64,000 bases of DNA. Source: a virus. The position numbers and the translations under genes were made by a program. The DNA is taken from positions 44,308-108,307 of the IMG/VR virus record IMGVR_UViG_3300016469_000277; one strand, written 5' to 3'. The notes below the pieces were generated by a model that was not told the origin of the DNA, did not search any database, and saw only the letters and a list, made by a program, of their open reading frames with translations. Below, one piece after another: positions 27,619 through 37,592 of the stretch (positions within the stretch are counted from its first letter, which is position 1; each line of letters begins with the position of its first letter).

Positions 27619-27725
27619 TGCGAGTGACAGGATTCGAACCTGTACGTAGGACCTACAATTAGATGATCGGCTATCCTACAGTAGTGATGATAATACTTGC
27701 GTCTAACCAATTCCGCCACACTCGC
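27619..27725 (-). ncRNA. tRNA-Leu-like RNA with non-canonical anticodon arm and enlarged variable arm (107 nt)
   Basis: Acceptor GCGAGTG/CACTCGC+A; D arm TGGCGGAATTGGTTAGACGC; T arm ACAGGTTCGAATCCTGT; anticodon stem AGTA/TACT with a 10-nt loop; variable stem GTAGGA/TCCTAC. Confidence 0.75.
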
Positions 27726-28680: not shown

Positions 28681-28812
28681 TAGTCAGGACAGGATTCGAA
28701 CCTGTATGATGTACTGCTTCACTTCCAAAACGGTTGATTCCCTTGTATGGACGCATCGACACATCTCCTATTTAATCTTATAGTAGCGTCTAACCAATTC
28801 CGCCACCTGACT
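28681..28812 (-). ncRNA. tRNA-Leu-like RNA with non-canonical anticodon arm and very large variable arm (132 nt)
   Basis: Acceptor AGTCAGG/CCTGACT+A; D and T arms identical to the 27619 element; anticodon stem CTAT/ATAG with an 8-nt loop; variable stem GATGT/ACATC enclosing about 45 nt. Confidence 0.75.
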
Positions 28813-29384: not shown

Positions 29385-29406
29385 GGTTTTTTAGTTTAAT
29401 TTTTAG

Positions 29407-29482
29407 TAGCCGGAAGGGGAATCGAACCACCTATCTCCAAGATGAAATCTTGTTGTCCTAAAATCCATTAGACGATCCGGCC
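29407..29482 (-). tRNA. tRNA-Glu(UUC), CCA not encoded
   Basis: Acceptor GGCCGGA/TCCGGCT, D arm GTCTAATGG..AGGAC, anticodon loop ATTTCAT, T loop TTCGATT; one mismatch each in the anticodon and T stems. Confidence 0.8.
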
Positions 29483-31118: not shown

Positions 31119-31143
31119 AGTTTATACTTTTTAGTTTAGTTTA

Positions 31144-31290
31144 AAATTTACCCCTCTGCACTCAGTTGTAACTCCAGGTTTATACCCTGAGATTCAGACA
31201 TTACTACGCTGCAGTCTTTCTCTGCAGATGCTCGTATTCTTATTACAACTGTCAGCCCTTGGGAAGCTGAAGTGGTGCGTTAAAAAATTT
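31144..31290 (-). ncRNA. Twister ribozyme (type P1) with extended P5; predicted cleavage at 31282/31281
   Basis: UAA-CGCA-CC...UCAGC-UUCCCAAGG-GCUGA; P5 CAGUUGUAA/UUACAACUG; AGUGCA-GAGGG; T1 CCC/GGG and T2 CC/GG; one C-A mismatch in P2. Confidence 0.75.
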
Positions 31291-31533
31291 GAACCTGTAA
31301 ATAATAAACAGCAAGGTGTGGACTTTTACCACAGTTAAGGAAGTTTGCAATTCCTTTCACAACCTCATGTTAGGCTTGTACTTCTTGTACACCCTCGCCA
31401 TTTATTTTTATTATCCCTCTGCACTCAGTTGTAATAGATAGCCAGTAGTACTACAGTATGGGTTACATACTGTCCATTGCTGATTCCAACGCAGCATTAC
31501 CTGAAGTTGGCGGTCACTATCTGTTACAACTGC

Positions 31534-32067
31534 TCACCCTTGGTGAGTGTGCTGAGGAGTGTAGTACCACTTATATCCATAAGCGGTTTTACTACTATCT
31601 TTAGCTGCTTTTGACAAGCAGGTAGTTTTATAATTTAATTCTCTTTCTATGTCTTTCATACAAGACCACTCTTTGATAAATAACCCATCAAGAGTGTATT
31701 GGTATAGTTTTTTAGCTTTACCATGTTTAGCTCCAGAAAACATTTGAGAAAGTTTTTTCTTAGTTTCTTCAGTATGCTTAGGTCTATTTCCTCCTTTATT
31801 GAGATTAAGACCTTTGTTTTCATCTTTCCAATAGCATTTATAAAAAGCAATCCAATATTGCTCTCTTTCATCCGCTAAAGTGTCAGAAACCTCTTCTATT
31901 ATCTCACACACATGATTCGCAAAACCATATTTTTTCAAAGAGTTATGTAATCTATATTGAGTTCTACAATGTAGAATTTTATATAAATTCATTCTCTTTT
32001 TATAATCCTTTGTTTGCCCAATATATACCTTTCCTGTTGGACTTGTGATTTTGTATATTGTTATCAT
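31534..32067 (-). CDS. GIY-YIG homing endonuclease with NUMOD3 and NUMOD1-like DNA-binding modules
   Basis: TIYKIT...VYIGQT...R...E...N; KHTEETKKKLS; YQYTLDG.FIKEW...TAYGYKW; ATG 4 nt after TATATTTG (32072-32079). Confidence 0.9.
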   Translation of the reverse strand: MITIYKITSPTGKVYIGQTKDYKKRMNLYKILHCRTQYRLHNSLKKYGFANHVCEIIEEVSDTLADEREQYWIAFYKCYWKDENKGLNLNKGGNRPKHTEETKKKLSQMFSGAKHGKAKKLYQYTLDGLFIKEWSCMKDIERELNYKTTCLSKAAKDSSKTAYGYKWYYTPQHTHQG

Positions 32068-32137
32068 AATACAAATATACAAAATAATGCACCATTTCCC
32101 AAGGGCTTAGGAAAATAAATTTCTTTATCACCCTTGG
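31534..32137 (-). mobile_element. Free-standing endonuclease insertion bounded by a 10-bp direct repeat CCAAGGGTGA
   Basis: tcacccttgg at 31534-31543 and 32128-32137; removing 594 bp restores a continuous twister. Confidence 0.75.
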
Positions 32138-32322
32138 GAAACTGATTAACTAACAATATACAACAGAGGATTTTACAACTGCTGTTATTATTCTTCATTA
32201 ATCAGTGTGGTTTCACATCTTGACCCATCAAGCAGGGCAGCGACAAGAAGTCTTTATATCCACGTGAGTTATGGTGCATTAATAAATTGCTATTTAACGG
32301 ATAGCTCCGACAGAATCAGCTT

Positions 32323-37172: not shown

Positions 37173-37592
37173 TTGTCAACAAATTACCCACAATTTAATG
37201 TTTTATAACTTTTAATGTTAGTTATTTACTATATTTGTTTTATGAAAACCATAAAACCAAAAAGAGTAACTGACTCAAACGAATTCTTACTACAGGGTAG
37301 TACAAAGTTGAAGGTAGGTTCTTGGAACTTAGCAGCTAAGGATTCTTTTTTGAGAAAAGAGTTTATGAAGGTTTTTAAAAAGAACCAAGACAACCAGGTA
37401 ATCTATCCATTGTTTGACTAATGTTGTCCAAGGAAGAAATTAATTTAAGGTTTAGTGAAGGCAATGTCTCTATCCAGGAAGGATTAGAAATCCTCAGAAG
37501 CTACATCTTCCTGCGCAAGAACCAAGACATTTCAGTTATACCTCCTAGAAATTCTATGGAGATGGGAATGTTTCAGTGGTTTCTTGAAATCA

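Follow-up and report, generated by a model that had tools for sequence, protein, structure and literature searches.

The stretch of DNA analysed in this study (the window, 64,000 nucleotides long) is part of a 108-kb phage record of IMG/VR, in which the genes near the finding all lie on the minus strand; a blastn search against GenBank phages gave no match. The ORF at 31534-32067 (minus strand) was identified as a GIY-YIG homing endonuclease with additional NUMOD3 and NUMOD1 matches, the GIY-YIG domain scoring 29.1 bits (cut-off 22.6) and the NUMOD1 and NUMOD3 matches scoring below their own cut-offs. This selfish nuclease cassette splits a twister-like RNA gene between P4 and P5, and the features at the locus are the following:

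32283-32128, minus strand: 5' half of the interrupted ribozyme.
32271-32281, minus strand: 5' core or cut-site strand, U followed by AAUGCACCAU, with the predicted cut directly after the U; 5' strand of helix H1.
32142-32270, minus strand: P4 5' strand CUCAC (32267-32263), then a two-hairpin insert domain, the 'type-b' variant.
32131-32141, minus strand: L4 (UUUCCCAAGGG) of the interrupted ribozyme, which provides the 5' strand of helix H2.
32106-32130, minus strand: loop of H2, where an inner stem closes on a GAAA loop; the cassette opens in this segment, its start lying after GGGUGA at 32128.
32085-32105, minus strand: 21-nt antisense segment CCCUUGGGAAAUGGUGCAUUA; 3' strand of H2 (32105-32096) and of H1 (32095-32085).
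32048-32084, minus strand: start-codon hairpin, whose arms are 32084-32074 and 32059-32049; the 5' arm carries the -7 box TATATTTG (32079-32072) and the loop carries the ATG (32067-32065).
31411-31533, minus strand: 3' half of the interrupted ribozyme, consisting of P5 (CAGUUGUAA ... UUACAACUG) and then A-GUGCA-GAGGG.
31142-31292, minus strand: intact neighbouring copy of the ribozyme family, the reference for the uninterrupted form, scoring 91.7 bits with the family model.

The sequence CCAAGGGUGA stands on both sides of the cassette, at 32137-32128 and at 31543-31534, and its second copy makes up the final codons and the TGA stop of the nuclease. The end of the nuclease ORF lies within ribozyme sequence: the TGA of the window belongs to a P4 3' strand (31545-31534, minus strand), and the TAA stop of the related cassette L125 (2010-2030) forms the end of CAGUUGUAA. 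We also observed that the last codons spell a pseudo-5' half (GCAC ... CUCAC-CAAGG-GUGAG) without the U-AA step. The type-b insert domain of about 130 nt, comprising hairpin i1 (closed by 32263-32260/32210-32207) and hairpin i2 (closed by 32206-32197/32150-32141), was also found in about 20 other contigs. Within i2 of the window, positions 32175-32183 (minus strand) carry the exact P5 entry word CAGUUGUAA, which is absent from i2 of L125. Elsewhere in the window, two tRNA-like genes at 27619-27725 and 28681-28812 (both minus strand) matched the Rfam tRNA model with 40.4 and 34.3 bits and contain insertions of 46 and 68 nt, respectively, in the anticodon or variable region, and ARAGORN called only a tRNA-Glu at 29406-29482.

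The interrupted RNA belongs to a large phage family that has been missing from RNA catalogues and is brought to light here. Its 18-mer ACAACTGAGTGCAGAGGG was found in more than 120 IMG/VR contigs, and the family consensus runs UUAAUGCACCA - P4 - UUCCCAAGG - P4' - CAGUUGUAA - 60-130 variable nt - UUACAACUG - A - GUGCA - GAGGG, where the P4 loop UUCCCAAGG carries the twister-type UCCCAAG. Among 39 aligned members, all five pairs of P4 show compensatory changes, P4 being 97.9% paired, all five pairs of P1 likewise show compensatory changes, L4 is near-invariant and P2 is invariant, as are U-A-A before UGCAC and G-A-GGG after GUGCA, which appear in the twister feature list (PMC11662667). The candidate pseudoknots CCC:GGG and CC:GG are possible in every sequence and never vary, an invariance towards which the collection is biased by the exact 3'-core word used to assemble it. 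By analogy with twister (PMC11662667), the scissile bond is predicted to lie between U32281 and A32280. Our family model, R1, gave three matches in this genome, of which the one at 31405-31576 consists of the 3' half and the pseudo-5' half.

Though the preliminary description had called this RNA a twister, Rfam did not confirm that identity. The twister-P1, -P3, -P5 and twister-sister models gave no match at gathering score, or with E up to 10, in the window, its sub-regions, the intact copy, 10 related loci or L203, and the Rfam scans of the window, its sub-regions and 11 loci yielded only tRNAs and one sub-threshold hammerhead. We use the wording 'twister-like' because these models score no copy, not even the compact 80-nt copy of L203. 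The family is therefore described as twister-like rather than as a confirmed twister member, and its self-cleavage is a prediction from conserved sequence; it is a family with an obligatory P5, a conserved 9-bp P5 base (CAGUUGUAA / UUACAACUG) and a variable cargo of 60-130 nt, absent from Rfam 15. Copies often adjoin tRNA genes, as in L052. The hammerhead core, CUGAUGAG ... CGAAAC, lies directly after a downstream twister-like 3' core in L124 (2135-2160, equivalent to L084 2710-2795), and matched RAGATH-1-hammerhead with 35.5 bits, below the gathering score. Two variants in L015 (11830-11930 and 12540-12640) keep P5 and the 3' core, have UUUCCCUUUGCAC on the 5' side of P4 and possess no CCCAAGG loop. 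They may represent a non-catalytic derivative, because their CCCUUUGCAC and GUGCAGAGGG can form a simple helix over their full length.

A repeat search revealed that 32095-32105 is complementary to L4 (32131-32141) and that 32085-32095 is complementary to the cut-site strand (32271-32281), over 11 nt and at 100% in both cases. The preliminary description had reported that the minus-strand segment 32105-32085, lying just inside an insertion, is exactly complementary to L4 (32141-32131) and to the cut-site strand, joining in antisense form two core elements that are not contiguous. Both complements are indeed exact where they were placed, their joining is confirmed, and the insertion is the GIY-YIG cassette that splits the twister-like RNA. 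Its designation of the intervening sequence as a P3 insert has to be corrected, as the insert of about 130 nt follows the P4 5' strand on the 5' side of L4 and hence is not P3. Of 2000 shuffles, 2 produced a Watson-Crick helix of 11 bp joining the 143-nt upstream half to the 17 nt that follow the anti-L4, and the exact word CCCTTGGGAA has only three occurrences in the 64 kb, every one at this locus.

The predicted minimum free energy fold of 32300-32040 (minus strand) has -78.8 kcal/mol (z -6.68) and contains both antisense helices, H1 (32281-32271 with 32095-32085) and H2 (32140-32130 with 32106-32096). In this fold H1, H2 and the start-codon hairpin form one contiguous stack, the hairpin directly abutting H1 with flush helix boundaries. 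The result is a four-way junction in which three of the four strand joints have no unpaired bases, the sole single strand being AACUCAC (32270-32264), which leads from H1 to i1. The predicted fold of the 901-nt read-through RNA retains the pairings of H1, H2 and the start-codon hairpin. The predicted energies are -15.7 kcal/mol for H1 and -20.4 for H2, versus -7.9 for P2, -6.7 for T1 and -6.8 for P4, such that the antisense pairing would be thermodynamically dominant over the ribozyme pairings of the same strands.

Two other identities were considered for this structure. A plain intrinsic terminator was rejected, as an intrinsic-terminator consensus scan did not flag the structure; its loop has 25 nt or is multi-branched, and a U4 run directly follows H1. 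A ribozyme on the plus strand was also rejected, as the weak model match at 32075-32180 (20 bits) merely restates the two complements, with no P2', P4 or P5. Outside the window, no 9-nt anti-5'-core word was found within 2.5 kb upstream of any family 3' core; the word occurs at five places in 1.16 Mb, one of them, in L041, about 150 nt from the 5' core of a copy and another, in L057, within about 450 nt.

The antisense segment serves at the same time as promoter DNA. The nuclease promoter consists of a -33 element CTTG (32103-32100), a 20-nt spacer (32099-32080) and the -7 box TATATTTG (32079-32072), with the ATG at 32067 four bases on. As DNA, the 21-mer supplies the CTTG and 15 of the 20 spacer nucleotides, that is, the upstream half of the promoter, and the overlap with the promoter pointed out in the preliminary description is real and more extensive than was given there. 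A (C/T)TTG element 19-21 nt upstream accompanies 10 of the 21 TAnnTTTG boxes that precede ORFs, compared with 7 of the 92 other boxes, and the arrangement of box, four nucleotides and ATG is shared by five other genes. Occurrences of TAT(A/C)TTTG followed after 4-5 nt by ATG were noticed at 37230 (+), 54765 (+), 19389 (-), 9656 (-) and 7523 (-), the last of these with a G+C hairpin and a T-run directly before the box, forming a terminator-promoter-ATG module. The recurrent layout suggests leaderless transcripts, and transcription of the nuclease probably starts near its ATG. The arrangement (C/T)TTG-N19-21-TAnnTTTG has the form of Bacteroidota promoters.

Reading of the sequences showed the 20-nt spacing between (C/T)TTG and the box to be kept in all four cassette lineages, with different sources of the element: it falls in the anti-L4 in L125, in AUUUGGAA in L285 and in the inner TTTG of the hairpin arm in L124 and L203. 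An 8-nt block directly after the anti-L4 widens the distance between its CTTG and the -7 box from 12 to 20 nt. The conservation of the anti-L4 is accordingly due in part to its promoter role.

For comparison we had three related cassette lineages beside that of the window, namely L125, L124/L203 and L285. Nuclease cassettes occupy this site at five loci, four with nucleases related to that of the window and the fifth with a different GIY-YIG enzyme. A protein search returned 40 nucleases with 50-97% identity to that of the window, and scans of IMG/VR and JGI for cassette homologs gave only L125, L124/L084, L203 and L285. A DNA pattern for the junction of anti-L4 and promoter again found only L125, synteny through the downstream gene revealed no relatives, and no empty allele of the window locus was found.

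The nuclease of L125 is 91% identical and its architecture is as in the window, with 17 of the 21 positions of the 21-mer kept when counted from the alignment. The nucleases of L124/L084 and L203 are 82-83% identical, and their cassette completes the upstream ribozyme with a short P5 and a 3' core that it brings along; the short P5 (L124 1253-1430, L203 205-270) reads GAUCAGCAAUGAUC, and the invaded ribozyme is rebuilt there, not locked. In this lineage a separate copy of L4 and the anti-L4 form a hairpin with as many as 21 bp around a GAAA loop (15 bp in the minimum free energy fold of L203), whose inner stem, corresponding to 32106-32130 of the window, is fully paired with compensatory and G-U changes. 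The G-U pairs work only as minus-strand RNA, and together with the compensatory changes they point to RNA-level selection on the hairpin. The same cassette stands behind a minimal 5' half in L203 and behind an insert-bearing 5' half in L124, a placement consistent with movement of the cassette between ribozyme copies. L285, with a nuclease 56% identical, has a 7-bp miniature, UUCCCAA-GGGA-UUUGGAA. Counting this miniature, the anti-L4 hairpin is kept in all three related lineages, and the start-codon hairpin is conserved in L125, L124 and L203. The different GIY-YIG cassette of L008, at the same L4 site, showed no antisense and no anti-L4 hairpin, indicating that the lock is not required for occupying this site; its insertion (L008 4443-4591 and upstream) lies between UUUCCCAA and UUCAAAU..., and it has the same start module of TATATTTG-TATT-ATG.

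The part that varies is the 8-nt block, which reads ATGGTGCA in the window and TGTGGTTT in L125 and is missing in L124 and L203, the lineage that is also without an orphan 5' core. The block of the window is an exact inverted copy of TGCACCAT in the 5' core, and that of L125 is an exact inverted copy of AAACCACA in the insert domain (p about 0.004-0.005 for each); both targets are present in both genomes, and the joint p is about 2e-5. The predicted fold of L125 uses the alternative block helix, beside i2 and H2. For the second helix of L125 (11 bp, G-U pairs included) an equal match appeared in 342 of 2000 unconstrained shuffles; this helix is not significant, the exact 8-nt block test being the only significant one. 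The pairing of the 21-mer is not due to chance, because the related copy in L125 pairs with a different piece of the ribozyme half. What the relatives conserve, as read from their sequences, is complementarity to the ribozyme half and not to the cut-site strand. Of the conservation among homologous insertions that the preliminary description had looked to, the complementarity to the ribozyme half thus stands, and that to the cut-site strand does not, L125 pairing instead with a non-catalytic part of the insert. The promoter overlap layout and this pattern of conserved and variable halves are new in this analysis.

The best reading of these data, which we put forward tentatively and hold to be just short of evenly balanced, is that on the read-through RNA a border helix would close the orphan half into a four-way junction, which stacks on the hairpin hiding the start codon, and would keep this RNA silent. 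The 21-mer would be a dual-use border piece of the homing endonuclease cassette, present as RNA only on transcripts that read through from upstream. Its first half would pair with the resident L4 and its second half, in the window lineage, with the cut-site strand; the orphaned 5' half would be closed into a four-way junction abutting the U-run, and this junction would stack on the hairpin burying the start codon. On such RNA the ribozyme half could not reach its distant 3' half and the nuclease would remain untranslated, and promoter-started transcripts would begin near the ATG without any of these structures. We infer from sequence and predicted folds that this RNA forms in vivo and blocks cleavage or read-through expression, and likewise where transcription starts. 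What favours the border helix is that it accounts for the compensatory changes and G-U pairs, for helix ends that meet flush, for inverted copies of two different targets and for the missing block where there is no orphan half. Against it, the conservation of the anti-L4 is partly explained by its role as the -33 element alone, and templated repair could yield exact 8-nt inverted copies without selection. The weak second helix of L125, the L008 cassette without antisense and the terminator scan that did not flag the structure also count against it.

Among the rival explanations, we regard it as unlikely that the 21 bp act as a DNA operator, mimicking the homing site (5' core and L4 of the minimal ribozyme gene) with the 7-nt P4 strand deleted. 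On this reading the nuclease would bind there but not cut, and would repress its promoter in the manner of I-TevI; the RNA helix would be a by-product of an inverted target mimic lying beside the resident half-target. The domain layout of GIY-YIG, NUMOD3 and NUMOD1 is I-TevI-like. Once the P4 strand is left out of the family consensus TAATGCACCAT[6-7 nt]TTCCCAAGGG, the 21-mer agrees with it at 21 of 21 positions, and it takes in the -33 element and spacer sequence of the nuclease promoter. The I-TevI operator lies across the late promoter of I-TevI itself, shares 15/20 positions with the homing site and has no cut motif at the right distance (PMC2988022); the positions retained in L125 amount to a comparable similarity. 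However, the promoter overlap is weak evidence, as anything within 35 nt of the start site overlaps the promoter. There is no target similarity across L4 into P4' and P5, where an I-TevI-like binding domain is expected, and the homing and cleavage sites of the nuclease are only putative. The G-U and compensatory inner-stem changes of L124 and L203 point instead to selection on RNA, and the block of L125 inversely copies a non-target segment, which a target mimic does not predict. The second half could also be a mutational by-product, to which we assign a low probability: it would have arisen where breaks and gene conversion are frequent, through template switching or the templated, inverted repair of a patch, and would persist as an 8-nt filler restoring the 20-nt spacing, the cut-site pairing having no selected function. 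In L125 the Watson-Crick match coincides exactly with the 8-nt block, which is the mark of a copied patch; the block has just the length that restores the spacing, promoter spacer sequence is normally unconstrained, and L008 has no antisense. Such an origin is opposed by the joint improbability of two different exact inverted copies at the same position in two lineages, by the absence of the block precisely in the lineage without an orphan half, by helix ends flush with H2 and the start hairpin, and by the extension of the window match to 11 bp.

The preliminary description had favoured either a cis switch protecting or timing the nuclease transcript or an inverted remnant of a minimal target site. 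A dedicated anti-ribozyme switch, in which the antisense stops or times self-cleavage to protect or schedule the nuclease transcript, appears to us very improbable. It would sequester both L4, which the two pseudoknots need, and the scissile strand with a large predicted energy advantage, and natural inhibitory flanks are known, such as the 9-nt upstream inhibitor of the CPEB3 ribozyme (PMC11662667). Yet cleavage between 32281 and 32280 would fall upstream of the whole nuclease mRNA and be harmless to it, and protection of the transcript is unlikely, as transcripts from the own promoter would start near the ATG and contain neither the antisense nor the cut site. L125 spares the scissile strand, and L124 and L203 keep the anti-L4 hairpin beside an intact, unlocked ribozyme, with an L4 copy that belongs to no ribozyme, which rules out ribozyme inhibition as the only role of the hairpin. 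An inverted target remnant fits poorly and was rejected as the main reading: it is without P4, and it is the 5'-core end and not the L4 end that adjoins the cassette interior, the wrong orientation for a flank left by insertion into L4.

Returning to the border helix, we consider a wider proposal possible and still rather doubtful, namely that cassettes invading self-cleaving ribozyme genes carry an evolvable antisense 'lock', which re-targets whatever part of the orphan half is available (the cut-site strand here, the insert helix in L125) and is dropped once the orphan half is gone. If true, a mobile element would silence a catalytic RNA in cis by base pairing, with its own promoter DNA as the antisense. 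Homing endonucleases are known from introns, inteins and positions between genes, and in our literature search none was described as residing within a small self-cleaving ribozyme; a small ribozyme gene would be a new kind of homing site. The case can serve to examine how a mobile element copes with a catalytic RNA out of which it cannot splice itself, and two solutions can be observed, a replacement 3' half in L124 and L203 versus an orphan half that would be zipped up in the window and L125. With one 21-mer as both promoter and predicted antisense, the design is a compact natural one.

With reference to known systems, the first comparison is with phage T4, in which I-TevI, I-TevII, I-TevIII, segB and mobE have a hairpin with the promoter inside, formed only on read-through transcripts, and the 3' end of the I-TevI ORF runs into the RNA core (PMC2988022). 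The cassette resembles the I-TevI module in that a GIY-YIG nuclease gene lies within a conserved structured RNA gene, in having its own promoter within a hairpin that would, as predicted here, prevent translation of read-through RNA alone, and in a target-like sequence over the promoter and an ORF 3' end that reaches the RNA core. It differs in that the host RNA is a small ribozyme of self-cleaving type and not a self-splicing intron, such that the insertion stays in the RNA. Moreover, the hairpin hides a start codon without a Shine-Dalgarno sequence, the promoter is of the TTG / TAnnTTTG form, and the target-like sequence is inverted and predicted to form a long-range helix with the resident half-target.

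The RNA family is comparable with twister of type P1 with P5 (Roth et al. 2014; Rfam RF03160), with which it shares the order of the U-AA step, P2, P4 with the UCCCAAG loop, P2' and G-A-GGG; both candidate pseudoknots could form, and P4 and P1 covary. In the rice twister P4/L4 is CCGG-UCCCAAGC-CCGG, and its catalytic A1, A2 and G stand at places matching the family (PMC11662667). While P5 is optional in known twisters and present in about 1% of them (PMC6154101), it is obligatory in the phage family and has the conserved 9-bp base. The L4 of the phage family also ends in GG rather than GC, with CC as the proposed partner. These proposed T2 partners, CC with GG, would stand in place of the GC with GC of the rice structure.

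Inhibitory flanks of ribozymes offer the third comparison, exemplified by the CPEB3 inhibitor mentioned above and by the P0 effects in twister (PMC11662667). In these, as predicted here, pairing of core strands with a sequence close by shifts the RNA towards an inactive fold. The inhibitor in the window differs in that it comes from a mobile element, is bipartite, lies downstream of the strands it would bind and doubles as a promoter.
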